DNA of 64,000 nt from Candidatus Saccharimonadota bacterium (GTDB lineage: Bacteria; Patescibacteriota; Saccharimonadia; Saccharimonadales; JAICHO01). A program made the translations under genes and the position numbers. Numbering within the stretch: the first letter of the stretch is position 1; every line of letters starts with the position of its first letter. Positions 9,854 to 45,674 of this stretch are shown here, one piece after another. The stretch is taken from contig JAICHO010000002.1 of the NCBI GenBank assembly GCA_025924835.1, positions 604 through 64,603 of the forward strand, in the 5' to 3' direction. The notes beneath the pieces are model-generated. The model worked only from the letters and a program-made list of their open reading frames with translations. It searched no databases and was not told the origin of the DNA.

Positions 9854-12800
9854 GTGGTAAAGCAACTTCAATCAAGCGATTTTGTACATCTGCACAACCA
9901 CACCCAGTACAGTCTACTGGATGGGCTGACGCGCGTTAATCAGTTAATGGATTTTACGGCAGCACAGGGCATGGAAGCAATTGCCATGACAGATCACGGT
10001 AATATGTCAGGGGCTATAGATTTTTACAAAGAGGCAATAAACCATGAAATCAAGCCCCTCATCGGCATCGAAACATATGTGGCTGCCAGAAAACACACCG
10101 ATAAAGACGCAGCCAAAGACAAGAACCGTTATCATTTAATTATTTTAGCTATGAATGACATAGGCTACAAAAACCTTATGCGATTATCTACTATCGCTAA
10201 TATTGACGGCTTTTACTATTATCCGCGCATTGACCATGATTTGCTTGAACGCTATAACGAAGGCCTGATAATCCTAAGCGCATGTATGGGTGGTGAAATT
10301 GGCGATGCTTTAAAAGAGGGTCAGTACCTGAAAGCTAAAGAAACTGCCGGTTGGTACAAACACGTATTTGGGGATAGATATTATCTGGAAGTTCAAGACC
10401 ATGGCCATCCTAAGAATCCCATGCACAGTCAGCAACAACAAGATATCAACGAGCAAATTCTGCGCTTGTCGACCGAACTTAATATACCCGCCGTCGTTAC
10501 TGCCGACGCGCATTATTTACGTCACGAAGATCAAGATGCTCACGAGATTTTATTGTGTGTAGGCACGGGATCATTCTTAAGTGACCCGAAGCGGATGTCA
10601 CTAAAAGAATTTCCCCTACACGTAACGGAACCATCTGAAATTATTGCCAGGTGGGGTTCCGACCACCCGGATTTAATAGCCAATACTAAAAAGATTGCAG
10701 ATATGTGTCACGTTGAAATTAAGCTAGGCAGCTATCACATCCCTAAGTTTCACGTGCCTAAAAATGAAACAGAAAAAAGCTACCTGGACACGCTAACCTA
10801 TCAAGGCCTTGTGCGCCGTTACGCACCGACAACAAATCAGCAAGAAATCAACAAGCTGAGTTTAACAGGCTTAAAGAAGAAGCTTACCCCTGAAATCATA
10901 ACAAGGGCCGAGTATGAGCTCGGCGTGGTAGACGGAATGGGGTTTAACGGCTATTTTCTTATTGTTCAGGATTTTATAAATTGGGGGAAAAATCAGGGTA
11001 TTGTGTTCGGGCCGGGCAGAGGAAGCGGTGCCGGATCTATTGTTGCTTATGCGCTGCGCATAACAGAGCTTGATCCGCTTACTTATGATTTGCTATTTGA
11101 AAGGTTCCTGAATCCCGATCGCATAAGTATGCCTGATTTTGACGTTGATATTCAGGACACGCGCCGTGATGAGGTCATTCAATATTGTGTTGAACGCTAC
11201 GGCAGCAATCGTGTCGCGAATATAGTAACTTTTGGGCGAATGCAGGCGCGCAATGCCGTACGCGACGTGGCACGTGTTTTGCAGGTTCCATATACGGAAG
11301 CAGATAAATTAGCCAAAATGGTTCCCCAGCCGATTCAAGGCCGTCATATTCCGCTAGAGAAATCATTGCAGGAAAATCATGAATTAAAACATGAGTATGC
11401 CAGCAATGAGACATCGCGTATGGTACTTGATCAGGCTATACGTTTAGAAGGTACAATCCGCAGTCATGGCGTACATGCTGCCGGAGTTGTTATTGCCCCT
11501 GATGATATTGTTAACTTTGTGCCGCTTGAAATGGCTCAGAAAGGCGTCATCACTACACAATATCCCATGGGACCCATTGAAGAGCTTGGTTTGTTAAAAA
11601 TGGATTTCTTAGGATTATCAAACCTTACAATTATTAAAAATGCCTTACGCATTATTAAACGCGTTCACGGTAAAGACATAGATATCGGCACCTTGCCTTT
11701 AGATGATGCAAAAACATATGAACTTTTCCAGGCCGGGGATACGACAGGTGTTTTCCAGTTTGAATCTGCGGGTATGAAGCGCTACTTAAGACAGCTTAAG
11801 CCAACAGTATTTGATGATCTTATAGCTATGAACGCTCTCTATAGACCTGGTCCCATGCAATGGATAGATGACTTTATTTCCAGAAAACGAGGCGAAAAGA
11901 AGATAGAATACATCCATCCGGCTATGGAGCCAGCGCTTAAAACAACTTACGGCGTCATTGCTTATCAAGAACAAGTAATGCAAATAAGCAAGGAAATGTG
12001 TGGTTTTACAGGCGGCCAAGCGGACAGTTTGCGAAAGGGTATTGGCAAAAAAATCCCTGAAGTGCTTGCAAAATATAAATCTGAGTTTATTGAGGGTGCG
12101 ATAAAAACGGTGGGCGCAGATAGGACTTTAATGGAGCGGTTCTGGAAAAACCTGGAAGCATTTGCGTCATATGCTTTTCCCAAAGCACATGCCGCTTGTT
12201 ATGCCATGATCGCGTATCAAACCGCGTATTTAAAAGCAAACTATCCCGCAGAATTCATGGCTGCACTGATGACAAGCGATTATGATGACATTGATAGATT
12301 GGCGATAGAAATCACTGAATGTAAGCATATGGGGATTGAAGTGTTACAGCCGGACGTTAATGAGTCATTTAACGAATTTGCAGTGGTTCCTGATAAAAAT
12401 CAAATCCGTTTTGGACTGAGGGCGATTAAAAATGTAGGCTCCAATGCCGTTGACGAGATATTACGTGCCAGAGATACTATCGGTGCTTTTGACAACTTGG
12501 AGAGTTTTTTTACTAACGTAAATGTACGTACGGTAAACAAAAAAGCCCTGGAAAGTCTGATTAAAGCCGGAGCATTCGATAGCTTTACTGATCGTTCGGT
12601 ATTGATCCAAAATGCCGACGTGCTGCTTGCGTATGCCAGCAAGTTCCAAAAAGATGCTGCTAGCGGACAAACGGATTTGTTTGGAAATGAGATAAGTGAC
12701 GAACACACTAAGCCAAAGCTCAGGCTTAATGAAGCCGTTCCGACAATAAGTCAGCGTGAACAATTGGCATGGGAAAGAGAATTGCTAGGCCTCTATCTTA

Positions 12801-13462
12801 GCCAGCATCCATTGGCCTCATATGAGGTATTTTTAGCAGAACAAACGGTACCACTGAATACGCTCAAGCCGGAACATGATGGCAAATCACTGAGCGCGGG
12901 CGGCAATATTACTGATGTACGTGAAATTACTACCAAAAATGGCCAAAAAATGGCTTTTGTTAAACTGGCCGATCAATTCGGCGAGATAGAACTGGTACTG
13001 TTCCCTAATATCTATCAGCAGACCTTGGGTATCTGGGAACGGGATAGAATTATTTTAGCTAAAGGCAAGGTCACGTCTCAGGATAAAAATGGTATTGCAA
13101 CAGAAGAGATCAAAATGCTGGTAGATGACGCTAGAGAAATCACCGCTGAACAGGCGTCCGCCTATCAAGCCACAGGCAAAAAAGGACCGGCATTAAAAGG
13201 TCGATCTAAGCCCAAACCTAAAGCCGCGGCAGTCAATGTAAGCCCACAGAGAGTTTATGTGCGGTTAGTTTCAAGCGCAAATCAGGACAAACTAGTTTCA
13301 TTAAAGCAAACCATTGATGCTCATCCCGGAGATACCGAAGTTGTTTTAGTTATTGGCGAATCTCAAAAACAAATTATACGACTGCCCTCGCGAATCGCAC
13401 ATGATAGCGGTATAGAAGATTTACGTACCATTGTTGGATACGAACACGTTAAATTGCAGTAA
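9854..13462 (+). CDS. dnaE: DNA polymerase III alpha subunit
   Basis: 1202 aa with a PHP domain N-terminus (FVHLHNHTQYSLLDG), polymerase core motifs (FDVDI, GLLKMDFLGL) and a C-terminal OB fold. GTG start preceded by AAGAGGG. Confidence 0.95.
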   Translation: MVKQLQSSDFVHLHNHTQYSLLDGLTRVNQLMDFTAAQGMEAIAMTDHGNMSGAIDFYKEAINHEIKPLIGIETYVAARKHTDKDAAKDKNRYHLIILAMNDIGYKNLMRLSTIANIDGFYYYPRIDHDLLERYNEGLIILSACMGGEIGDALKEGQYLKAKETAGWYKHVFGDRYYLEVQDHGHPKNPMHSQQQQDINEQILRLSTELNIPAVVTADAHYLRHEDQDAHEILLCVGTGSFLSDPKRMSLKEFPLHVTEPSEIIARWGSDHPDLIANTKKIADMCHVEIKLGSYHIPKFHVPKNETEKSYLDTLTYQGLVRRYAPTTNQQEINKLSLTGLKKKLTPEIITRAEYELGVVDGMGFNGYFLIVQDFINWGKNQGIVFGPGRGSGAGSIVAYALRITELDPLTYDLLFERFLNPDRISMPDFDVDIQDTRRDEVIQYCVERYGSNRVANIVTFGRMQARNAVRDVARVLQVPYTEADKLAKMVPQPIQGRHIPLEKSLQENHELKHEYASNETSRMVLDQAIRLEGTIRSHGVHAAGVVIAPDDIVNFVPLEMAQKGVITTQYPMGPIEELGLLKMDFLGLSNLTIIKNALRIIKRVHGKDIDIGTLPLDDAKTYELFQAGDTTGVFQFESAGMKRYLRQLKPTVFDDLIAMNALYRPGPMQWIDDFISRKRGEKKIEYIHPAMEPALKTTYGVIAYQEQVMQISKEMCGFTGGQADSLRKGIGKKIPEVLAKYKSEFIEGAIKTVGADRTLMERFWKNLEAFASYAFPKAHAACYAMIAYQTAYLKANYPAEFMAALMTSDYDDIDRLAIEITECKHMGIEVLQPDVNESFNEFAVVPDKNQIRFGLRAIKNVGSNAVDEILRARDTIGAFDNLESFFTNVNVRTVNKKALESLIKAGAFDSFTDRSVLIQNADVLLAYASKFQKDAASGQTDLFGNEISDEHTKPKLRLNEAVPTISQREQLAWERELLGLYLSQHPLASYEVFLAEQTVPLNTLKPEHDGKSLSAGGNITDVREITTKNGQKMAFVKLADQFGEIELVLFPNIYQQTLGIWERDRIILAKGKVTSQDKNGIATEEIKMLVDDAREITAEQASAYQATGKKGPALKGRSKPKPKAAAVNVSPQRVYVRLVSSANQDKLVSLKQTIDAHPGDTEVVLVIGESQKQIIRLPSRIAHDSGIEDLRTIVGYEHVKLQ

Positions 13463-13507
13463 TGCTAGACGCGAATAATTCTGTATCAAGTCTTACATAT
13501 TGCCATT

Positions 13508-14512
13508 CTAGCGTATAAAACCGGTAGTTTTAGATAAAATGGCGCCGATTAGTACCATACTGACAAGTATTGTGTCCAATAAAGGATGATGCAAAACAAA
13601 TCGTTCGCTTCCTCTGATAATATGTCGTAACCCAGCCGCATGTTTAAGGAGCAACACAATCAAACAAAAGCCAGTAAGGAGACCGACACCGAATGATAAC
13701 CAGGGTGCCTTCCCGTCCGTCAGTGTCTGTGCCTTAGCAACTTTTAGCGTCTGTGGTTCCTGTGTGATCTTTTGGTCGGTTGTTACTGGCGATTTACTGA
13801 CAGGTTTATTTTCGGCTGTAGCTACTGCGGCCGCTGGTTGCTGCGTAACATTAACTGTCTTGGATGGTGCGGACGTAAGCGGTAAAGGAGCTGCAGGCGA
13901 AGCTGCGGCTTGTTGGTTGGATGCGGCCAATACCTGCGGCTTGCCGTACATAGCCACAACAACAGTTTCTGGTCCGCTGTTATTATAATCAGACCCATTC
14001 GCGAAACCGAAGCCTACGTCACTAAAATCTTTGTCCAGTAAGTTTTCCCGGTGGGGAGGACTATTCATCCATCCTATCACCGTGTCATTACTCGTATTGA
14101 ATCCGTACGCCAAATTTTCACCTGCCTTTAAATACTTGTAACCGGCATTATTAACGAAAACCCACGGTTCTTCACCATCTGGTGTGTTATGTGACCAGTA
14201 ATTGCGAGCAACCATATCATTAGCCTTTGCCTGAGCGGCAGCCGTTAAGGTTTGATTAAGCGTGAGGTCTGTTGTATTGTTTTGCTCGCGTTGCTGATTC
14301 GTGGCTACTAATAACTGATCTATGCTCATGCTAGTGGCATAAGCCAGAACGCCCGCTCTGCGATGAGCCGGTTGAGCCGTGCTAACCACAAACGTCGCAA
14401 TCACAATCAGAATTACTGGAATATATGGCCAGTAATGCCTGTGTTCACGTTTGTGGATGTGTTTTGGTTTGCTGAGCGCACGTATTTTGTGCGGCCGTTG
14501 GAGCATAAGCAT
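13508..14512 (-). CDS. Membrane-anchored CAP/SCP/PR-1 (YkwD-like) domain protein
   Basis: The N-terminal TM helix is followed by a CAP-domain-like segment (AAQAKANDMVARNYWSHNTPDGEEPW ... GWMNSPPHRENLLDKDFSDVGFGF). After that come an Ala/Pro/Thr-rich linker and two C-terminal hydrophobic helices. Confidence 0.7.
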   Translation of the reverse strand: MLMLQRPHKIRALSKPKHIHKREHRHYWPYIPVILIVIATFVVSTAQPAHRRAGVLAYATSMSIDQLLVATNQQREQNNTTDLTLNQTLTAAAQAKANDMVARNYWSHNTPDGEEPWVFVNNAGYKYLKAGENLAYGFNTSNDTVIGWMNSPPHRENLLDKDFSDVGFGFANGSDYNNSGPETVVVAMYGKPQVLAASNQQAAASPAAPLPLTSAPSKTVNVTQQPAAAVATAENKPVSKSPVTTDQKITQEPQTLKVAKAQTLTDGKAPWLSFGVGLLTGFCLIVLLLKHAAGLRHIIRGSERFVLHHPLLDTILVSMVLIGAILSKTTGFIR

Positions 14513-14530
14513 AGTGTAACTATATTTATA

Positions 14531-15031
14531 TTATTTCGCAAACCGGCAATGGTATAGGGCCATGGCTGCGGCTTGAACAACATTGAACGACTCCTTTTGA
14601 CCGAACATTGGTATTTCTACTACGGTATTACAAATTTCTAGTACGCCGGCTTCTATACCGTCTGTTTCACGCCCGACAATTAAAGCCATTCGCTCAGGCA
14701 CCTGTAGTTGGGCTAACGGTACGCTGTTCGGAGCCTGTTCTAGGCCCGCAATAACATAGGCTGCTTGTTTAAGTTCCTGAATCACAGCTGTAATATCATG
14801 GCGGTGGTTCCACTCTAAGGTTTGTTCGGCTCCTAGCGCCGTTTTTTGTATTTGGCGATGTGCTTTGGCTGCAATATGTGGCAATCGTTCATCGGGGGTA
14901 CTCAATGGATATGGCGTGTAACCTGTGAGATATACCTTCCTGACTCCTAGGCCTTCCGCTGTGCGCAACAGCGAACCGACATTATGGCAGCTTCGTACAT
15001 TGTGAATAATGAGAATTATAGCTCTATCCAT
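14531..15031 (-). CDS. SpoU/TrmH-family RNA 2'-O-methyltransferase
   Basis: 166 aa with IHNVRSCHNVGSLLRTAEGLG and a C-terminal IPMFGQKESFNVVQAAAMALY, typical of SPOUT methylases. Confidence 0.8.
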   Translation of the reverse strand: MDRAIILIIHNVRSCHNVGSLLRTAEGLGVRKVYLTGYTPYPLSTPDERLPHIAAKAHRQIQKTALGAEQTLEWNHRHDITAVIQELKQAAYVIAGLEQAPNSVPLAQLQVPERMALIVGRETDGIEAGVLEICNTVVEIPMFGQKESFNVVQAAAMALYHCRFAK

Positions 15032-36929: not shown

Positions 36930-37014
36930 GCGGATGTGGTGGAATTGGTAGACACGCCAGTTTTAGGAGCTGGTGCCGTAAGGCGTGAAGGTTCAAGTCC
37001 TTTCATCCGCACCA
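36930..37014 (+). tRNA. tRNA-Leu (anticodon UAG), long variable arm, CCA encoded
   Basis: Acceptor GCGGATG/CATCCGC and anticodon stem CCAGT/GCTGG with loop TTTAGGA (anticodon TAG). Also a variable arm GTGCCGTAAGGCGT, a T-arm GAAGGTTCAAGTCCTTT, and a terminal ACCA. Confidence 0.9.
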
Positions 37015-37071
37015 GGAGATATATTAAATGCTTAAACGAATAGGTTGGATAATAGTGCAGCTAATTTACAA

Positions 37072-37509
37072 TTAGCCCACCATGGTTACCCTTCCTAAAA
37101 TGGACCATTGGTCGTATATCAATTGATTGGTCTCGTAATGATTAATCTGGGTAAATACTGCTCTTAAACCATAATACTGTTCGCTGACCCCACCGCATAC
37201 CTCATCAAGGTCGGCATCTGAAGCTACTGACACCATAGACCACAAATCTCCATCTGTTGCCCTTACTGCCGAATTAATAAAGCTACGCACTCCCATTAAA
37301 TCCAAGGCGGAATATATAATATATGATCCAAGATCACGCGCTGTATTACGCATCATTGCAGGATGTTCACCAGGAAGGCCGCTTACTACGCGTGCGGGTT
37401 TATATGCAAGAGCCGCGACATAAGCTGGATCGGTAAATCCTAGTTGACTTTCTAGCTCCTCTTTACTAAATCCGATCTCTGGCAGTGGTTGTCTATAACG
37501 ATTTCTCAC
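37072..37509 (-). CDS. Hypothetical protein (orphan)
   Basis: 145-aa ORF with no motif recognised. It is the first gene of an AT-richer stretch after tRNA-Leu. Confidence 0.4.
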   Translation of the reverse strand: MRNRYRQPLPEIGFSKEELESQLGFTDPAYVAALAYKPARVVSGLPGEHPAMMRNTARDLGSYIIYSALDLMGVRSFINSAVRATDGDLWSMVSVASDADLDEVCGGVSEQYYGLRAVFTQINHYETNQLIYDQWSILGRVTMVG

Positions 37510-37663
37510 GAGGAATATGATACACTATTATAGTAAATAAATCAATATATTTGTATTATAATTTTTATTTACACTCTGCTGTTGATTTCCTTAACTATCA
37601 TAGTACAAAAAAGCATAACGTTGACTAATTCTTATATTTCAGCCACACTTACTACTGATAAAA

Positions 37664-37984
37664 ATGTCTAAACATCATACTCATAGCTACCACCAACATA
37701 AAAAGGCAGCGACAAAAAGAAAAAAAACCAAATCGCCGATTGACTATATGGTTGCTTTTTTCATGTTTATGTCACCATTGTTTGAGTTGCCCCAGGCAGT
37801 CAATATTTATACCCAGAAAAGTTCCCATACTGTATCGCTGACAACATGGATATTATTTTTTGTCGCTAGTGTTGCATGGTTAATTTATGGTGTAAGGAAC
37901 CGCCTTCGATCAATTATTATCATACAAATCATTTATATGGTTATTGAAGCGACAGTTGTAGCTGGTATAGTTCTTTATCCCTAG
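37664..37984 (+). CDS. SemiSWEET-like (PQ-loop, 3-TM) small transporter with a basic His/Lys N-terminal tail
   Basis: 106 aa with three hydrophobic helices and the PQ motif at the end of helix 1 (MSPLFELPQAVNIYTQKS). Size and topology match bacterial SemiSWEETs. Confidence 0.6.
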   Translation: MSKHHTHSYHQHKKAATKRKKTKSPIDYMVAFFMFMSPLFELPQAVNIYTQKSSHTVSLTTWILFFVASVAWLIYGVRNRLRSIIIIQIIYMVIEATVVAGIVLYP

Positions 37985-38040
37985 CTCCAGGGGCTTTAAT
38001 CTTGTGAAATAGCTCATTACTAGTTAATCTATCTATAATC

Positions 38041-38526
38041 ATGGAGCCGAGTTTAATACATTCTTTAATTGGTAATCTGGGACTGAGCCCGGATTTTTCT
38101 AATAAATTTGAGGGCTCGCCCGGTTCCAAAACAAAGCAAAAGAATAATGTCAAGCAAGGTGTTCAGATTGTAGTCAATGTCAATGGCGTCGCCGCCGAGA
38201 AGCGTAAAGAAACTACAAACAGCAAAGTCGGTACGTATAAGGAGGGCTACCATGCGGTTTTCCTTGATAACAACCAGGTCTATTTTGGTAAGTTAAAGCG
38301 TTTTGCGGACAATGCCCAATTCGTCTCATTAAAGGATGTTTATTACTTGCGTGACATTAGCGACGAGGCCGTGCTGAACTTTGATTTGGTCAAACTTGGC
38401 AGCGAAATTCATTCGCCAGAGGATGAGATGCATATAAACGTTAGTAAAATTTTGTTTTGGGAAAAACTGAAAGACAGTGGCCCAATCGTAACCGCTATCC
38501 TTAATTTTGAAGATGGTATAGTATAA
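38041..38526 (+). CDS. Hypothetical protein (start uncertain)
   Basis: 161-aa ORF. The C-terminal ~90 aa (YHAVFLDNNQVYFGKLKRF...) looks globular. No motif recognised. Confidence 0.4.
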   Translation: MEPSLIHSLIGNLGLSPDFSNKFEGSPGSKTKQKNNVKQGVQIVVNVNGVAAEKRKETTNSKVGTYKEGYHAVFLDNNQVYFGKLKRFADNAQFVSLKDVYYLRDISDEAVLNFDLVKLGSEIHSPEDEMHINVSKILFWEKLKDSGPIVTAILNFEDGIV

Positions 38527-38550
38527 AACTCAATCCGGGCAACGAGACTA

Positions 38551-39249
38551 ATGGCTACAAATACCGAATCATCTCCAGAGACCACACGACGCGAGCATGG
38601 CTTACTGCTCCGTAGAGCTTTAAAGCTGGGCACTGCAGCTTTGAGCGCCTTACTACTGTTTGGCGTGGTCGAAGCTACTCACGCCCCGACGCGGGCAAAG
38701 CGTTCGTATCATGCTGTCACCAGATGGGCAGGTACCGGTTATGATTCACTGAATGATTTATTAAACAGCTTATCCTATGAGCCCGCTCACTACGATAATC
38801 CCACCGAACAAGCTATATATGAGGAGATTGGACAAGGCAGGGCTAAACAGAAGCAGCTGCCTGTTATAGAGGGCGTGCTAGCGGTTTCCAATAACGACAT
38901 GAGGGCACAAGCTGATCAACTGCCGTCATTTGCCATACAAAATCCAGTGCTCGTGAGCATCAAAAATGGCGATCAAACCGATCAATATTTGGTAGCGCAT
39001 AATGGCCGAACAGCCGATACGCCTAAAGATCTGTTATATATCCCTCTTGCGGACGCACAATTTTGTAGCACAGTGGATGCCGTACCACGGGTCGTTAATA
39101 GAATGTTGGGTAGTAATCGACAAACCAACGGATTTGAAGCTACGGATGTCGGCACTGTCGTTTATGTGCCCGCGGATATCGCGGCTGGCTGCCAACGTGA
39201 GGTTGCCGTGTCAGAAATCAACCAGCAGACGCTCCAGCCTGCCGCGTAG
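38551..39249 (+). CDS. Hypothetical membrane-anchored/exported protein
   Basis: 232 aa with an N-terminal basic region plus a hydrophobic helix (LGTAALSALLLFGVVEA). The remainder is unrecognised. Confidence 0.45.
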   Translation: MATNTESSPETTRREHGLLLRRALKLGTAALSALLLFGVVEATHAPTRAKRSYHAVTRWAGTGYDSLNDLLNSLSYEPAHYDNPTEQAIYEEIGQGRAKQKQLPVIEGVLAVSNNDMRAQADQLPSFAIQNPVLVSIKNGDQTDQYLVAHNGRTADTPKDLLYIPLADAQFCSTVDAVPRVVNRMLGSNRQTNGFEATDVGTVVYVPADIAAGCQREVAVSEINQQTLQPAA

Positions 39250-39272
39250 GTATCAATAACTGTAAAATAGAT

Positions 39273-39301
39273 TTGCAGAACATTGACTAGTGTGGTATAA
39301 T
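39273..39301 (+). promoter_or_regulatory. Promoter TTGCAG-17-TGgTATAAT (extended -10) of the his leader
   Basis: TTGCAG at 39273-39278, a 17-nt spacer, TG at 39293-39294 and TATAAT at 39296-39301. The hexamer ends 7 nt before ATG 39309. Confidence 0.6.
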
Positions 39302-39308
39302 GTAATTT

Positions 39309-39365
39309 ATGTTTATAGCAACTAACCAGCATCATCTGCATATATTGCCGGAGTCTCTCCGTTAG
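39309..39365 (+). CDS. Candidate his leader peptide MFIATNQHHLHILPESLR (18 codons)
   Basis: ATG TTT ATA GCA ACT AAC CAG CAT CAT CTG CAT ATA TTG CCG GAG TCT CTC CGT TAG. Three His codons fall in a 4-codon run. The ORF lies between a strong promoter and an intrinsic terminator directly upstream of a hisG-like gene. Confidence 0.5.
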   Translation: MFIATNQHHLHILPESLR

Positions 39366-39387
39366 TTTGCTACTGTTTTAAATTGCT

Positions 39388-39419
39388 AACGCCGGAGCTG
39401 CTCTCCGGCGTTTTTTGTT
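39388..39419 (+). terminator. Intrinsic terminator (attenuator) in the his leader
   Basis: AACGCCGGAG-ctgct-CTCCGGCGTT is a perfect 10-bp stem with a 5-nt loop, running into TTTTTTGTT. It lies 30 nt upstream of ATG 39449. Confidence 0.8.
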
Positions 39420-39448
39420 ATTTTCAACTATTTAAATAAGGAAATGTA

Positions 39449-40417
39449 ATGATAAATGTAATTGAGGCCGCTCAGGCGGCCGAACGAATAGTAGTACCTA
39501 AGGGTGATGATAATAAAGGATGTATACAGGCATTTCAAGAAGTAACCGATATTGAAGTACCTATTTTTAGTGATCGTGCATATAAAGCCGTGTCTCAAGG
39601 TAGGGAATTCTTTTTGGTTAAAGGCAAAGACATACCTCGCATTGTTTCATCGGACCGCTTTAGTGTTGATGTTGGCTTAACCGGCTATGATTCTTATCTA
39701 GAATTTGCCGGTGTCTCAGCAGTAAACCTAGCATATCAAAAGGTTGGTCGTCCAATGTGCGAGTTTGCATTATTGGCGCCAACAGACGAAGCGGAGCGCA
39801 CGGTTTGGCTTTTAGACAATAGCATGAGTCCGCTACAGGTAGAAACCAGCTTCCCGCGTCTATTAAGCGGCTTAGCTGCCACCAGTGACTTAAACATAAC
39901 GGTCTTGAATGATGGGCTATCTGGCAGCATGGAAATTATGCCGGAGTTAAGTGGCATACGACTAGTGGCGGATTTGGTAACGAAAGGAGACACAGCAAGA
40001 GCTAACGGTGTAACACCGATTCGGAAACTTATCGATGTCTATCCAGTTTTGGTTGTGAAAGATGGTAGCCAGCCCGAGACTGACAGCCCTAGGACTTATC
40101 AGGGCATTGACGCAATTGACCAGACACTGACAGCTCGTTATCGGGCAATAGACGACCCGTCACAATCTTCATACACCATCAGGCAAATGCGTGATCCTAA
40201 TAAACGGCGGAAAAAGGTGACCGAAGAAGCAGGTGAGGTAATCATCGCATCATGCATCGGCACTACCGAGGAGCTGGTTAGCGAACTTGCAGATAGTGTA
40301 TTGGCCGGCATAATAGACTTAAAAGTTAAATCTGAAGGCCGGTTGGGACTGGGAGCAGTAATTGACGAGCTGATAGCGCGCAATGTCCGAATGACTTCCA
40401 GTGGGAGAAATCGCTAG
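39449..40417 (+). CDS. hisG: ATP phosphoribosyltransferase (short-form HisG-like) fused to a HisE-like phosphoribosyl-ATP pyrophosphatase domain
   Basis: The N-terminal ~215 aa resemble HisG (KGKDIPRIVSSDRFSVDVGLTGYD; GSMEIMPELSGIRLVADLVTKGDTARANG). The C-terminal ~95 aa resemble HisE (SYTIRQM...KKVTEEAGEVIIAS...EELVSELADSV...GLGAVIDELIARN). Confidence 0.65.
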   Translation: MINVIEAAQAAERIVVPKGDDNKGCIQAFQEVTDIEVPIFSDRAYKAVSQGREFFLVKGKDIPRIVSSDRFSVDVGLTGYDSYLEFAGVSAVNLAYQKVGRPMCEFALLAPTDEAERTVWLLDNSMSPLQVETSFPRLLSGLAATSDLNITVLNDGLSGSMEIMPELSGIRLVADLVTKGDTARANGVTPIRKLIDVYPVLVVKDGSQPETDSPRTYQGIDAIDQTLTARYRAIDDPSQSSYTIRQMRDPNKRRKKVTEEAGEVIIASCIGTTEELVSELADSVLAGIIDLKVKSEGRLGLGAVIDELIARNVRMTSSGRNR

Positions 40418-41697
40418 TGCGTACCTATACTAATCCAGGCTCGGAACAGTGGGATGCCATATCATGTCGTCCTGTGCTGAGCACGCATGGGCTTGACCGG
40501 TTGATAGCCGCAATTTTTACAAAGGTCGAGAACGAGAACGACGAAGCGCTAATTGCGCTCACAAGAAAATTTGACGGCGTAAAGCTTAAGACGTTAGTAC
40601 TGTCTAAATACCGTGTCCGCAGACTTGCTGACCAAGTCCCCGCAAAATTAAGAAAGGCTATAGACGTGGCCTTTAACAACATTCAAGCTTTTCATGTAGC
40701 GCAAATACCGGACCTAGAAAAAGAGACTGTCCGGATTGCATCAGGCGTATTGTGTTGGCGCGAAAATCGGCCAATTGAACGAGTCGGGCTGTATGTTCCT
40801 GGTGGCAACGCCCCACTTGTTTCTACGGTTTTAATGTTAGGTGTACCAGCGCAGATTGCCGGATGCAATGAATTGGTCATTTGTACCCCGCCTCAAAAAA
40901 ATGGAAATGTTACGCCTGCGATATGCTACGCTGCACTCAAAGTAGGCGCTACTAAGTTAATTACGCTCGGCGGCGCCCAAGCCATTGCGGCTATGTCGGT
41001 TGGAACAAAGACTGTACCTAAAGTAGATAAAATCTTTGGGCCTGGCAACCAATATGTAACTGCAGCAAAGCACTACGCGGTTAAATATGGCGTGGCTACT
41101 GATATGCCGGCCGGTCCTTCTGAGGTGCTAGTCCTGGCAGATAAGACAGCTAGCCCTCAGTTTGTGGCCGCTGACTTGTTGAGTCAGGCTGAACATGGGG
41201 CAGATAGCCAAGTGGTCTTGGTGTCTACTGACGAAGAAGTACTGAAATTAGTAAAGCAAGAGCTAACGATGCAACTAAAAACCATGCCTCGTTCTGCCAT
41301 AGCAAAGGCGGCTTTAGCTCATTCATTCGCTGTATATTTTGATGACATGCCTACTGCGCTTCGGTTTGTTAATACTTATGCGCCCGAGCACCTCATACTG
41401 AATATTAAAAACCCAAATGGTGCAATTGCCGCTGTTAAAAATGCGGGATCAGTATTTTTGGGCAATTATTCCCCAGAAAGCGCTGGTGATTACGCGTCAG
41501 GTACTAACCACACACTGCCAACTAATGGTTGGTCCAAAAGTTACGGCGGCGTTTCATTAGACAGTTTTGTCAAAAAGATAACGTTTCAATCACTGTCTAG
41601 GAGCGGTCTTAAAAGCCTAGCACCGACCATTGTGGAATTAGCTGAGTCGGAAGGCTTAAGCGCACATGCTGAAGCGGTGCGTATTCGACTTAAGTAA
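40417..41697 (+). CDS. hisD: Histidinol dehydrogenase
   Basis: 426 aa with LLSQAEHGADSQ, GPSEVLV, YAPEHL and GDYASGTNHTLPT motifs. The GTG start overlaps the upstream TAG by 1 nt. Confidence 0.9.
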   Translation: MRTYTNPGSEQWDAISCRPVLSTHGLDRLIAAIFTKVENENDEALIALTRKFDGVKLKTLVLSKYRVRRLADQVPAKLRKAIDVAFNNIQAFHVAQIPDLEKETVRIASGVLCWRENRPIERVGLYVPGGNAPLVSTVLMLGVPAQIAGCNELVICTPPQKNGNVTPAICYAALKVGATKLITLGGAQAIAAMSVGTKTVPKVDKIFGPGNQYVTAAKHYAVKYGVATDMPAGPSEVLVLADKTASPQFVAADLLSQAEHGADSQVVLVSTDEEVLKLVKQELTMQLKTMPRSAIAKAALAHSFAVYFDDMPTALRFVNTYAPEHLILNIKNPNGAIAAVKNAGSVFLGNYSPESAGDYASGTNHTLPTNGWSKSYGGVSLDSFVKKITFQSLSRSGLKSLAPTIVELAESEGLSAHAEAVRIRLK

Positions 41698-41722
41698 AAG
41701 TAAGCTATAATCGGAGTAAATC

Positions 41723-43030
41723 ATGGCACTATCAACCCAACCATATAAAGGCGCTCGGGATTTCTACCCGGCAGATAAGCGCATGCAAAAATATTTGTTT
41801 AGCGTCATGCGTCGTGTCTGCGAAAGTTATGGCTACGAAGAATACGACACACCTATTTTGGAGCCGACCGAGCTGTTTGCCAGCAAGACAAGTGACGAAA
41901 TAGTAAATGAACAAACCTATACGTTTACAGATCGGGGCGGACGCAGTGTTACGGTACGTACAGAAATGACACCATCAGTATCGCGCATGGTGGCGGCCAA
42001 ACGCCAGGAGCTGGCATATCCGCTCAGGCTCTACGCTATCCCGAACCTATGGCGCTATGAGCGTCCGCAGCGCGGCCGCTTACGTGAATTCTGGCAGCTT
42101 AATGCTGACATATTTGGTGTAGCCGGTTTGGCGGCCGAGCAAGAGCTCATACAACTACTTGATGACATTATGCAGGCATATGGCGCTAAGCGAGATATGT
42201 ACACCATCAAGCTAAGTAGCCGTAAACTAATCAATGCTTTCTTAGGTGAAGTTCTGGGCATGGACGAGACACAGATAACAACTATGATCCGCCTGATTGA
42301 CCGGATGCATAAAATGGAACATCCGGAATTTATTGGCCAAGCTGATGCAATATTTAGTCCTACGCAGCGTGAGACAGGTGCGAGCGAGCAATTATTCGCC
42401 TTACTTAATACCTCATCACTAGATAGTTTACCAGCTACTATCGCCAACCATGAGACATCAATTAGCATGAAACGAATAATAGAAAAACTTGAAAAAGCAA
42501 AGATTACAAACGTCGTTTACGACCCCACAATCATGAGGGGGTTTGATTATTATACCGACATTGTATTTGAAGTTTACGATACGGACCCCGAGAATAATCG
42601 TGCCATGTTCGGCGGCGGCCGCTATGATAGTTTAGTGAGTCTTTTTGGCGTAGACGCAGTGCCGACCATTGGTTTCGGTATGGGCGACGTCACGCTACTT
42701 AACTTTTTAGAGACGCATAATCTACTGCCAAAGTTACGACCTGAAACTGATATTTATATTGTTACTATCGGTGAAGCGGATGAGGCGGCTAGCAAAGCTG
42801 CAGCTGACCTGCGTGAAATGGATATAAATGTGGCATTAGACATAACGGGCCGTCAGGCAGAAAAACAGATTAAGACAGCCGAAAAGAAGGGTGTCCATTA
42901 TGTTTTATTCGTTGGTGAAAAAGAAGCAGCCAGCCAGCAATTTGTCCTTAAAGATCTAGAATCTGGAACACAGGAAACACATGGCTTGGAGCGCATTGCC
43001 AGTATAGTCAAGGATTATCGCAGCGCGTGA
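41723..43030 (+). CDS. hisS: Histidine-tRNA ligase
   Basis: Class II motifs (RYERPQRGRLREFWQ, GGGRYD) and a C-terminal anticodon-binding domain. TATAAT at 41706-41711 and GGAG lie upstream. Confidence 0.9.
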   Translation: MALSTQPYKGARDFYPADKRMQKYLFSVMRRVCESYGYEEYDTPILEPTELFASKTSDEIVNEQTYTFTDRGGRSVTVRTEMTPSVSRMVAAKRQELAYPLRLYAIPNLWRYERPQRGRLREFWQLNADIFGVAGLAAEQELIQLLDDIMQAYGAKRDMYTIKLSSRKLINAFLGEVLGMDETQITTMIRLIDRMHKMEHPEFIGQADAIFSPTQRETGASEQLFALLNTSSLDSLPATIANHETSISMKRIIEKLEKAKITNVVYDPTIMRGFDYYTDIVFEVYDTDPENNRAMFGGGRYDSLVSLFGVDAVPTIGFGMGDVTLLNFLETHNLLPKLRPETDIYIVTIGEADEAASKAAADLREMDINVALDITGRQAEKQIKTAEKKGVHYVLFVGEKEAASQQFVLKDLESGTQETHGLERIASIVKDYRSA

Positions 43031-43467
43031 CTGCTACCAACCATGTTTTAACGGGAGCCTTAATTGGCCTTACGATTCATCAGCCCGTACTGGCGGTTAT
43101 GCTGGCCATAATCTCTCATTTCTTGTTAGACGCATTGCCTCATTATGGAGCTAAAAATTTAAAGGGTCATGGCTTTAAGCTGTTGCTAGGCGCAGACGCA
43201 TTACTAGCAAGCTTTATTCTGTTAGCTTTGGTTGTAGGCAGGCCAATGGGCTGGCAGCTAGCCGTAGGATGTGGCGTCGCGGCAGCTAGCCCTGACCTTA
43301 TGTGGTTACCTGGATGGTTACGCATGCTCCATGGGCGGTCACGCGGTCGATTCAATGCCATTATGAAGATGCACAAAGAAATCCAGTGGGCGGAAAAGGC
43401 CAAAAACTATCCATTTGAAATCATCTGGCTCGTAAGCGGGGTTATCTTGCTGGTAAAATTAGTCTAA
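43027..43467 (+). CDS. Small polytopic membrane protein, YdjM/DUF457-like (putative membrane-bound metal-dependent hydrolase)
   Basis: 146 aa with 4 predicted helices and an ISHFLLDALPH motif. The start overlaps the hisS stop. Confidence 0.5.
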   Translation: MTATNHVLTGALIGLTIHQPVLAVMLAIISHFLLDALPHYGAKNLKGHGFKLLLGADALLASFILLALVVGRPMGWQLAVGCGVAAASPDLMWLPGWLRMLHGRSRGRFNAIMKMHKEIQWAEKAKNYPFEIIWLVSGVILLVKLV

Positions 43468-43479
43468 ATCTGTTAAAGT
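43465..43479 (+). promoter_or_regulatory. Extended -10 promoter TGtTAAAGT for tig, within a 15-nt motif shared with the rpsL promoter
   Basis: TAAATCTGTTAAAGT at 43465-43479 is identical to 54219-54233. The hexamer ends 8 nt before ATG 43488. Confidence 0.5.
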
Positions 43480-43487
43480 AACACCTT

Positions 43488-44768
43488 ATGCAAGTCAAAG
43501 TGAATTATCCGGCAAAAACCCAGGCAGTCGTAACGGTTATTGCCACAGAGACAGAACTAAAAGCCATCAAAGACCATGTCCTGGGCCATTTCCAGGGCAG
43601 AGTAAAAGTTCCTGGCTTTAGAGAAGGTAAAGTCCCGGCCGCCGTATTAGAAAAGCATATTGACCAAACCGCTTTACAGGCTGACTTTCTAGAAGAAGCT
43701 TTGCAGCAATTGTATTCACAAGCCGTAAGGTCACAAGAGTTACGTCCGGTAGACAACCCTGACGTATCGGTAAAAAAGTTTGTGCCCTACGATGCCCTGG
43801 AATTTGAAGCCAAAGTCGCTGTCGTCAGCAATATAAAATTGCCTGATTACAAGCAAATAAAGATAGCCAAAAAACCACTCAGCATTACTGCCAAAGACGT
43901 TGAAGCGGTACTAAAATCCCTGCAAGAGCGTATGGCCGAAAAGCATGATGTTGACCGACCGGCCAAAAACGGTGATCAAGTCTGGATTGATTTTAAGGGC
44001 ACGGACGCGAGGGGTAAGCCCGTTAATGGCGCTGAAGGTAAAGATTATCCACTATTGCTGGGCAGCAAAAATTTTATACCTGGATTTGAAGATAATATTG
44101 TTGGCATGAAAGCCAATCAAGACAAAACATTTACACTAAAATTCCCGGCCGATTATGGCGTTAAGGCACTTGCCAATAAGAATGTTACCTTTGCGGTTAC
44201 GCTTACCAAGGTACAAGAAGTCGCTAACCCCAAGATTGATGATGAGTTCGCAGCCAAGGTAGGACCTTTTAAAACTGTCGCGGAGCTAAAGGCCGATATA
44301 AAAAAGCAATTAGGTATTGAGAAACAACAGGAAGCAGATCGGGCGTATGAATCCGAGATTATTGAAGCCATAAGTGCCAAAAGCACCATGGAGATCCCTG
44401 ATGTATTAATAGACAGCCAAATTGAACGCATGGAGACCGACGAACGGCAGAATCTGACATATCGTGGGCAGACCTGGGAGGAGCATCTGAAAGAAGAAGG
44501 TCTGACAGCTGAACAGCATAAACAACAAAAGCGTCCCGAGGCAGAAGCCCGTCTAAAAGCTAGCTTTGTTCTGGCCGAAATAGCCGAAGCCGAACAACTA
44601 CAGGTTATGCCGGAAGAGCTGGAAATCCGTCTGCAGGTTCTGAAGAGTCAATACAAAGATCCACAGATGCTCGCAGAGCTGGAAAAGCCCGAAAACAGAC
44701 GAGATATTGCCGGCCGCATCCTTACCGAAAAAACCCTGACCAGATTAACAGGCTACGCAAGCTCTTAG
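43488..44768 (+). CDS. tig: Trigger factor
   Basis: 426 aa with an N-terminal ribosome-binding region (GFREGKVP), an FKBP-type PPIase middle domain and a C-terminal arm domain. Confidence 0.9.
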   Translation: MQVKVNYPAKTQAVVTVIATETELKAIKDHVLGHFQGRVKVPGFREGKVPAAVLEKHIDQTALQADFLEEALQQLYSQAVRSQELRPVDNPDVSVKKFVPYDALEFEAKVAVVSNIKLPDYKQIKIAKKPLSITAKDVEAVLKSLQERMAEKHDVDRPAKNGDQVWIDFKGTDARGKPVNGAEGKDYPLLLGSKNFIPGFEDNIVGMKANQDKTFTLKFPADYGVKALANKNVTFAVTLTKVQEVANPKIDDEFAAKVGPFKTVAELKADIKKQLGIEKQQEADRAYESEIIEAISAKSTMEIPDVLIDSQIERMETDERQNLTYRGQTWEEHLKEEGLTAEQHKQQKRPEAEARLKASFVLAEIAEAEQLQVMPEELEIRLQVLKSQYKDPQMLAELEKPENRRDIAGRILTEKTLTRLTGYASS

Positions 44769-44810
44769 CGGACGAAACCCCTATTGACACTAGTAGTATA
44801 ATATATTGTA

Positions 44811-45020
44811 ATGATAAGAACTCTCATTGAAGCATATCGTGGGTCAACAGTACGTGAGTTATACCCTGTTGTGTTAATAGGCATGGCAGCCCTGGGTGGT
44901 GCTGTATCTGAAGCGGCGCATGGTAATTTTATAGGTACAGGAGTGTATCTTGGCATAGGTACTGTTGGTATGACAGGAGCGGGTGCCATTATAATAAACA
45001 AAAATAATAATCCAAATTAG
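44811..45020 (+). CDS. Small Gly-rich hydrophobic protein (hypothetical)
   Basis: 69 aa with glycine-zipper-like LIGMAALGGAV...GTGVYLGIGTVGMTGAGAII. TATAAT (44797-44802) lies 8 nt upstream. The stop codon lies inside the clpP CIRCE element. Confidence 0.4.
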   Translation: MIRTLIEAYRGSTVRELYPVVLIGMAALGGAVSEAAHGNFIGTGVYLGIGTVGMTGAGAIIINKNNNPN

Positions 45021-45043
45021 CACTCTTGACCTTTGAGTGCTAA
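45017..45043. promoter_or_regulatory. Consensus CIRCE inverted repeat (HrcA operator type) upstream of clpP
   Basis: TTAGCACTC-TTGACCTTT-GAGTGCTAA is an exact match to the CIRCE consensus arms. TTGACC sits in the spacer, with TACACT 17 nt downstream (45049-45054). Confidence 0.8.
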
Positions 45044-45080
45044 TTTATTACACTTGAAATACATTAAGAAAGGTTAAACC

Positions 45081-45674
45081 ATGAGCGTATTAATTCCGAC
45101 TGTTATAGAGAGTGAAGGCCGATATGAGCGAGCCTATGATATTTATTCAAGACTTCTGAAAGACCGCATTATCTTTTTAGGCGATCAGGTTGACCAGCAC
45201 ACAGCTAATATTATTGTGGCCCAACTGCTATTTTTGCAGTCAGAAGACGCTAAGAGAGACATATTTTTGTATATAAATAGCCCTGGCGGCAGTGTCTATG
45301 ACGCAATGGCTATCTATGACACTATGCAGTATGTAAAGAATGACATACAAACGGTAGGGATCGGCGTGCAGGCAAGTGCCGCGGCTTTTTTGCTCAGTTC
45401 CGGCGCCAAAGGCAAACGGTTTATGCTGCCACATTCGACGGTAATGATTCACCAGCCCTCATCGGGGACGCGCGGTAAAGTTACCGACCAGGAAATTGAT
45501 TTGCGCGAATCGTTGCGTGTTAAGAAGTTACTGGAAGAGATTATGGCCAAAAATACAGGGCAGAAAACCGCTCGTATTCATGATGATATGGAGCGCGATC
45601 GCTGGATGGATGCCAATGAGGCTCAAAAGTACGGTATTGTAGACAAAGTCATTACCGCACCCCCAAAAGCTTGA
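45081..45674 (+). CDS. clpP: ATP-dependent Clp protease proteolytic subunit
   Basis: 197 aa with YINSPGGSV, the catalytic-Ser region ([14 protein letters not shown]) and MIHQPS. Confidence 0.95.

Follow-up and report, generated by a model that had tools for sequence, protein, structure and literature searches.

The described systems closest to the locus treated here are the attenuator-controlled enterobacterial operon for histidine biosynthesis (his), hisL-hisGDC(NB)HAF(IE), the short-form ATP phosphoribosyltransferases HisG_S with their partner HisZ, and the bifunctional HisIE. A His leader has been predicted upstream of a Bacillus hisS paralogue and of hisZ (PMC2965389), and HisR is known as a TrpR-family repressor of his operons (PMC9413887). 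Reviews of his gene fusions (PMC1963479, PMC10138114, PMC9413887) cover hisD, hisN, hisB and hisH, further hisF, hisI and hisE, and hisZ-hisG, and a hisG-hisE fusion is absent from them. In the literature collection searched, no paper joining Patescibacteria with histidinol dehydrogenase was found, and none relevant on Saccharibacteria and histidine biosynthesis. Here we describe a his locus of a Saccharimonadales bacterium, lying in a 64-kb stretch of contig JAICHO010000002.1 (assembly GCA_025924835.1; this whole stretch is called the window), in which a hisG-hisE fusion gene (hisG.E), hisD and hisS follow a short leader. Comparison with related loci, which are given L-numbers, makes it quite likely that this cluster arose by deletion from a complete his operon, controlled by an attenuator and reading into hisS.

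Complete and Reduced his Operons

Locus L016 carries the backbone genes of the window together with a complete operon, HisR(TrpR-like)-HisG.E-HisD-HisC.N-HisB-HisH-HisA.F-HisI-HisS-x146-Tig, and the layout of the window equals that of L016 minus hisR and minus one contiguous block from hisC to hisI. The same complete operon with G.E was found elsewhere on the chromosome in L015, L101 and L102. No hisC, hisB, hisH, hisA, hisF or hisI was detected in the 64-kb window by tblastn (E ≤ 0.1) with E. coli and clade-specific HisC, HisB, HisH, HisA.F and HisI as queries, in agreement with a first-pass annotation made from the sequence alone, and the window does not hold a complete ten-step his operon. 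Loss of the middle genes is thereby shown for the his locus and the 64-kb window only. The contig of L016 (DATKRL010000001.1) is labelled "Candidatus Dormiibacterota" but has a Saccharimonadales backbone, and it is probably mis-binned or mislabelled.

A series of erosion states was observed in the corresponding slot of the related loci: G.E-H-A.F-I-S (L014); the same with hisH truncated at its 5′ end, the first ~51 profile positions being lost (L105); G-D-IE-S (L008); G-D-I-S (L018); G.E-D-S (window, L004, L005/L006); G-D-S (L010, L019, L093); G-S (L001, L082); leader-hisH-hisS (L096); HisR/leader followed by two unrelated genes and hisS (L032); and the leader or attenuator directly before hisS, with all his genes gone (L040). 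The truncated hisH of L105 is a deletion scar. The constant elements are the backbone gene hisS and, wherever any his remnant survives, the leader. Since the G.E-D-S order was present on the independent assemblies L004, L005 and L006, it is not an assembly artefact. In L014 (positions 11549-14654) hisA.F and the essential hisS are both split into several frames, which most likely reflects assembly errors and not real pseudogenes.

The remnant-bearing loci were scattered in the HisS tree. In the neighbour-joining tree of HisG (200 bootstraps, as for HisD) the window, L004 and L005 formed a clade in 200/200 replicates with the G-D-S locus L010 as sister (175/200), so the truncated G(E)-D-S layout is old in the window lineage, and maintained. 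In the HisG tree as in the HisD tree, the proteins of the complete operons grouped in a clade of their own (200/200). Monophyly of all operons lacking the middle genes, as expected from a single ancient loss, was considered and not accepted (bootstrap support of only ~50%).

In all six operons that combine G.E (or G|E) with hisI, HisI was monofunctional (cyclohydrolase alone, 100-110 aa), which indicates that the E domain merely changed partner within a normal pathway. How such a fusion arises or splits is shown by L015, where hisG and hisE lie in one frame with a single stop codon between them.

Other fusions were noted in these operons. HisA.F is one 491-aa protein (L015:7744-9219, L016:14931-16406, and 10001-11476 in L101, L102, L103, L105 and L106), which occurs in >120 clusters (≥52% identity), most of them unnamed or bearing a Patescibacteria label; forms of ~700 aa contain in addition a GATase (HisH) domain (P0234, P0275, P0277). 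Proteins of 509-515 aa join HisC to a histidinol-phosphatase-like (HAD/PNK3P) domain (L016:12225-13754, L102:7268-8815, L106:7882-9414), and in L015 and L103 the histidinol phosphatase is encoded by a separate gene. Complete operons of the G.E type adjoin purH (L101:13042-21476, L015:11610-13280), accompanied in L101 by purB, purC, purK, purE and purD; because of these adjoining pur genes, some fusion-bearing Patescibacteria are metabolically much less reduced than the window lineage appears to be.

The HisG.E, HisD and HisS Proteins

The 322-aa product of hisG.E matched Pfam HisG (PF01634) with 58.5 bits over residues 59-209 (gathering score 25.5) and PRA-PH (PF01503) with 33.6 bits over residues 236-282 (gathering score 21.3). 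The first-pass annotation had proposed a HisG-like N-terminus joined to a HisE-like C-terminus, with HisE linked to HisG instead of HisI, and both proposals hold. HisG_C gave no match at E ≤ 1, the C-terminus being PRA-PH instead. Under the stricter NCBIfam models the scores lay below the cutoffs (TIGR00070, 60.1 versus 75.75; TIGR03188, 41.1 versus 42.7, just below), so HisG.E is a divergent member of these families. A profile built from four fusion proteins matched solved ATP phosphoribosyltransferases over residues ~13-230 (E down to 3e-14) and solved HisE (1yvw, 2a7w) as well as HisIE over residues ~220-320, and the best sequence match in the PDB for the G domain of the window alone was L. 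lactis HisG_S (1z7m). The HisG motifs D-x-V-x-x-G-x-T-x-x-N-G (the loop for phosphoribosyl pyrophosphate, PRPP) and SGS-E-x-P were invariant in eight clade proteins and aligned to those of 1z7m, 1h3d and 5ub9. The acidic ligands of HisE (E259, E260, E263, E279 and D282; EExxE...ExxD) were the same in all four fusions and lined up with those of B. cereus HisE; three of the 14 universally invariant columns are nevertheless altered in the window. An AlphaFold2 model showed helices over residues 219-317, with low confidence (predicted local distance difference test score 56, from a 4-sequence alignment).

Close relatives of the fusion are rare. Eight matches were obtained in 5.8 billion proteins and seven loci in ~185,000 species-representative genomes, all from metagenome-assembled genomes of Saccharibacteria/Patescibacteria save the one contig labelled Dormiibacterota, and an exhaustive search of representatives gave ~15-20 full-length hisG-hisE fusion clusters in 1.84 billion proteins. 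On the basis of the latter number the architecture is rare. It is also unnamed, yet public data already contain it, and there both Pfam domains are precomputed. The cluster does not call for a special role a priori: it corresponds to a complete operon of sister genomes without one contiguous block, and the G.E fusion belongs to that complete pathway.

HisD, identified as such already in the first pass, scored 527.7 bits with Pfam and 501 with TIGR00069 (cutoff 243.8). All nine zinc-binding, catalytic and substrate-binding residues examined (Q259, H262, D360, H419, E326, H327, H367, E414 and S140, E. coli numbering) were kept, together with 126 (95%) of the 133 columns that do not vary between E. 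coli and the complete-operon enzymes. As noted before, 25 nt separate hisD from hisS; hisG.E and hisD, earlier described as separated by 1 nt, overlap by 1 nt.

HisS passed the histidyl-tRNA synthetase (HisRS) model TIGR00442 (355 bits, cutoff 286.75), contained HGTP_anticodon (56.6 bits) and showed the class II motifs (motif 2 WRYERPQRGRLREF, RGFDYYT and GGGRYD). It failed the HisZ model TIGR00443 (178.9, cutoff 271.65). The earlier assignment to a genuine HisS and not to HisZ is in full agreement with these results, and by its sequence the protein is an ordinary cellular HisRS. The further suggestion that it doubles as HisZ found no support in the sequence: on the HisZ model E. coli HisS scored 171, the window protein 179, that of L016 (complete operon) 168 and that of L040 (no his genes) 183. 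HisZ-like specialization was therefore rejected, since neither E. coli HisS nor the clade HisS of loci without his genes scored differently. A HisZ turned up neither in the window nor in the related operons compared. A self-sufficient fusion, the alternative offered at the same time, is compatible with the complete G.E operons of L101 and L102, which lie far from any hisZ or hisS.

In two loci of other Patescibacteria (L103:4086-5375 and L106:4818-5999) a HisRS-type gene lies directly upstream of, and overlaps, an unfused short hisG. Its product, with the anticodon-binding domain and intact catalytic motifs, exceeds the cutoff of TIGR00442 (400 and 305 bits, respectively); it could be a HisZ that retains all HisRS features or the HisRS of the cell embedded in the operon.

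Leader, Predicted Attenuator and HisR

The promoter-like site, leader peptide ORF and intrinsic terminator upstream of hisG.E are listed in Table 1. Region 2 of the leader (39355-39361) can pair with the 5′ arm of the terminator as an antiterminator. In 16 aligned loci the leader motif (N/Q)HHxH(I/M)(L/S)P(E/A)R..* was found, in some as a mini-ORF and in others at the C-terminal end of HisR, and two additional loci (L102 and L105) showed the HisR tail followed by the terminator. A terminator was present in 16/16 leaders (free energy −11 to −19 kcal/mol), and when the third His codon was taken as the site of a stalled ribosome, the segment just before the stop codon paired with the terminator 5′ arm in the best fold, again in all 16. 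The terminator helix was 94.5% paired with three compensatory pairs; none of 500 shuffles reached its score, which also exceeded that of slid controls. A 1:2 helix of the attenuator was considered as well and is not claimed, owing to poor pairing. At the gathering threshold Rfam matched nothing but the tRNA; neither a T-box nor one of its His leaders was detected. The element is accordingly predicted to be a leader-peptide attenuator of classical design. Because no terminator lies between the leader and hisS, hisS is most likely co-regulated by it.

HisR genes ending in ..HHxHI(S/P)PAR(A/V)(E/G)* and followed by the terminator were located at L005:239-571, L007:1008-1334, L008:2918-3283, L014:9558-9920, L016:9540-9908, L017:6809-7174, L032:7737-8105, L102:4597-4962 and L105:8043-8372. 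The 3′ end of the repressor gene would thus double as the attenuator leader, and the 18-codon leader of the window looks like a remnant of the HisR tail after loss of hisR. In L032 (7737-10937) HisR with its His-tail attenuator is followed by a gene for a 226-aa protein without known function, one for a 236-aa aspartoacylase-like protein and hisS; here the attenuator front end appears to have been reused for other cargo.

Selection on the Retained Genes

Between the window and L004 the synonymous divergence (dS) was saturated and the nonsynonymous divergence (dN) of G.E was 0.18 (G domain 0.18, E domain 0.15), compared with 0.31 in HisD, 0.18 in HisS and 0.19 in Tig. These values show strong purifying selection on HisG.E and HisD, which on this measure are not decaying. 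The window retains 66% (G) and 51% (E) of the residues invariant in the complete-operon fusions; this suggestive sign of an accelerated or altered evolution of HisG.E after truncation did not hold after calibration with HisS and Tig, which showed it to reflect phylogenetic distance. In stricter columns, invariant across two deep clades, 25 of 31 (G) and 11 of 14 (E, three being altered) were kept, as compared with 95% for HisD, a comparison biased by the choice of columns. Tajima's relative-rate test of HisG against the complete-operon lineages showed no significant acceleration.

Chromosomal Slot and Neighbouring Genes

The his genes occupy a variable slot in a rigid shared gene order, PBP1-TyrRS-methyltransferase-RecG-w272-RsmD-tRNA-Leu(tag)-[variable slot]-HisS-x146-Tig-ClpP-...-RpoB, which assigns the window to a chromosome of Saccharimonadales type. 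The tRNA-Leu also precedes the slot in L022, L027 and L054, and hisS-x146-tig is conserved in about 80 metagenome loci. A scan centred on the HisS of the clade gave 80 loci; upstream sequence was sufficient in 67, and about 60 of these showed hisS-x146-tig without any his gene or leader. In the nearest his-less relatives of the window the slot contains unrelated, non-conserved small genes; its left part in the window (37015-39250) has three ORFs. The small, hydrophobic x146 protein is encoded between hisS and tig in most loci of the clade and is probably co-transcribed with hisS. The GC content is uniform over the his locus.

Table 1. Features of the his locus and of its surroundings in the window.
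Feature	Position	Strand	Evidence or remark
tRNA-Leu(tag), left border of the variable slot	36930-37014	+	ARAGORN, Rfam
145-aa ORF, left part of slot	37072-37509	−	
w161, left part of slot	38041-38526		81% identical in L004, absent from other relatives examined
w232, left part of slot	38551-39249		no Pfam or NCBIfam family match
Promoter-like site TTTGCA-18-TATAAT with TG extension	39272-39301	+	best score in 38000-45200, 10/12 matches
Leader peptide ORF MFIATNQHHLHILPESLR*, 18 codons	39309-39365	+	His codons 39330-39335, 39339-39341; conserved motif
Intrinsic terminator (10-bp stem, 5-nt loop, T-run; stem-loop 39388-39412)	39388-39418	+	strongest of the region, z = −3.8
hisG.E, short-form ATP phosphoribosyltransferase (residues ~1-210) and phosphoribosyl-ATP pyrophosphohydrolase (~218-322)	39449-40417	+	Pfam, NCBIfam, profile, PDB matches, motifs
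hisD, histidinol dehydrogenase	40417-41697	+	Pfam, NCBIfam, residue checks
hisS, class II histidyl-tRNA synthetase with anticodon-binding domain; backbone gene	41723-43030	+	NCBIfam, Pfam, synteny
x146, conserved small protein, 4-nt overlap with hisS stop	43027-43467	+	synteny; no Pfam/NCBIfam family
tig (trigger factor), right-hand backbone gene	43488-44768	+	Pfam Trigger_N/FKBP_C/Trigger_C on the L001 orthologue; synteny

Interpretation of the Locus

The results are best explained by the following course of events. In some sister Saccharimonadales lineages the slot between tRNA-Leu and hisS-x146-tig is filled by a complete his operon, with hisR and its His-codon tail, the terminator/antiterminator and hisG.E-hisD-hisC(N)-hisB-hisH-hisA.F-hisI running into hisS. 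The window lineage would have lost hisR and the contiguous block hisC to hisI, hisG.E and hisD remaining after the attenuator and before hisS. At a shortage of charged tRNA-His, a ribosome would stall at the HHxH codons, region 2 would pair with the terminator 5′ arm, and transcription would read through into hisG.E, hisD and hisS, and probably also into x146 and tig; with plentiful tRNA-His the terminator would form. The oxidation of histidinol to histidine is most likely still carried out by HisD and would be of use in salvage. HisG.E, too, most likely goes on converting ATP and PRPP to phosphoribosyl-AMP; the benefit of this without the downstream enzymes is unexplained, unless these are encoded elsewhere in the genome.

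Several observations weigh against this course of events. G.E, its E domain included, is as constrained as essential genes, which is hard to square with a dead-end product. The attenuator mechanism is computational only, and pairing in its 1:2 helix reaches only 60% in a fixed register. The attenuator is missing from L015 and L101, and the operons of L015, L101, L102 and L017 do not adjoin hisS, so that the linkage of attenuator and hisS is typical of the clade but not universal. The gene trees of HisG, HisD and HisS are not fully congruent, and because of this disagreement operon variants may have been moved between lineages by recombination instead of eroding strictly vertically.

Whether the pathway is truncated in the genome as a whole bears directly on the role of the retained genes. 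Its middle genes are probably absent genome-wide, since they sit in the same operon as hisG in all eight loci that have them (L014, L015, L016, L101, L102, L103, L105 and L106), five of which were reached through HisA.F and hence without selecting for hisG, and since remnants such as hisH alone (L096), truncated hisH (L105) or hisG alone (L001, L082) would make no sense in a split regulon. The opposite case, that hisC, hisB, hisH, hisA.F and hisI lie elsewhere in the genome and the window holds the regulated ends of a complete but divided pathway, is rather unlikely. It would account for purifying selection on G.E and HisD as strong as that on HisS and Tig, for the intact catalytic residues, for an old and inherited G(E)-D-S layout and for the relative-rate result, and the operons unlinked from hisS (L015, L101, L102, L017) do show that his genes move; yet it is at odds with those remnants and with the 8/8 association, and no cluster of middle genes only was seen among the loci found. 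Tentatively, the middle genes may be truly absent while HisD salvages histidinol from the host or community for the co-transcribed HisRS and HisG.E has a HisRS-linked or nucleotide role. Histidinol inhibits HisRS. In the extreme form of this proposal the genuine HisRS would itself be a HisZ-like partner of the short HisG, as an ancestral-like bifunctional synthetase, which we consider very unlikely. Such a partnership would account for the retention of hisG beside hisS more often than of any other his gene (it is kept in most partial states, G-S included), and it would fit the absence of HisZ from all these operons, the similarity of the short HisG to the HisZ-dependent L. lactis enzyme, and the HisRS-type gene with an anticodon domain that overlaps hisG in the classical hisZ position in L103 and L106. 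On the HisZ model, however, the window protein scores no differently from E. coli HisS or from the HisS of a his-less locus in the clade, hisS-x146-tig is a fixed backbone in about 70 his-less relatives too, complete G.E operons occur far from hisS (L101, L102), hisG can be dispensed with beside hisS, as the states leader-hisH-hisS and leader-hisS show, and short HisG has basal activity without HisZ (PMC9734150).

Least credible of all is that hisG.E and hisD are non-functional relics awaiting deletion, with only hisS and its attenuator of importance. Erosion of the slot to nothing in most relatives and the scar in L105 would agree with this, as would the loss of 8-11 of the 31 deeply invariant residues in HisG of the most reduced operons and of 5-6 of 31 (G) and 2-3 of 14 (E) in the window group. 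Against it stand the intact ORFs, a dN of 0.18 with saturated dS, the same as for the essential neighbours, the retained motifs and metal ligands, and a layout conserved over a 200/200 clade with HisG domains down to ~61% identity (~48% with L010); moreover, the signal from the invariant columns is not significant once ascertainment is removed. The deletion derivative of a complete operon is therefore preferred, and the locus is a clear case of stepwise pathway loss, not a new kind of system.

Significance and Comparison with Known Systems

The loci provide a many-state view of how a biosynthetic operon is dismantled in the ultra-small genomes of the candidate phyla radiation while its regulatory front end is kept for the essential hisS. 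Three features are unmentioned for this group in the reviews cited above (PMC1963479, PMC10138114, PMC9413887): a hisG-hisE fusion complemented by monofunctional hisI, the hisA-hisF fusion that is widespread in Patescibacteria, and a repressor gene whose 3′ end is the attenuator leader. Steps 1, 2 and 9/10 kept over a long time without the middle amount to a "patchy pathway" and point to metabolites being handed over between bacterium and host, or else to a split regulon. If the middle genes are absent, HisD would readily be explained by histidinol salvage feeding the co-transcribed HisRS, and the strong purifying selection on G.E and HisD makes a role outside de novo synthesis more interesting.

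HisR as described (PMC9413887) is matched by a PF01371 gene directly upstream of the his operon in most relatives; in contrast to that system, the window lacks the gene and retains just the leader mini-ORF, and in Saccharimonadales the 3′ end of hisR holds the His codons of the attenuator. The Bacillus leader (PMC2965389) likewise places a synthetase-family gene under a leader rich in the cognate amino acid, whereas hisS here would inherit the attenuator of a his biosynthetic operon. Bifunctional HisIE (PRA-CH and PRA-PH) has the same MazG-like PRA-PH domain with EExxE...ExxD, but the partner in the present fusion is HisG (step 1) and not HisI (step 3), so that the consecutive steps 1 and 2 are joined. 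The HisG_S/HisZ systems of L. lactis (1z7m), T. maritima, P. arcticus and A. baumannii (PMC9734150, PMC10795190) share with the window a catalytic domain of ~205 aa without HisG_C and a HisRS-family gene in the same operon; they differ in that the neighbour here is by its sequence a bona fide HisRS with an anticodon-binding domain, and that a HisE domain occupies the HisG C-terminus. With the enterobacterial hisL-hisGDC(NB)HAF(IE) the complete relatives share the gene order G-D-C-B-H-A-F-I, as well as a short ORF with His codons and mutually exclusive antiterminator and terminator hairpins. The leader studied here has three His codons (HHxH) instead of seven, matches no Rfam family at the gathering threshold and in the relatives is often the C-terminal tail of the HisR gene, and the operons differ from the enterobacterial one in that E is on G and not on I, A is fused to F and transcription would read through into hisS, the window being in addition without the genes from C through I.

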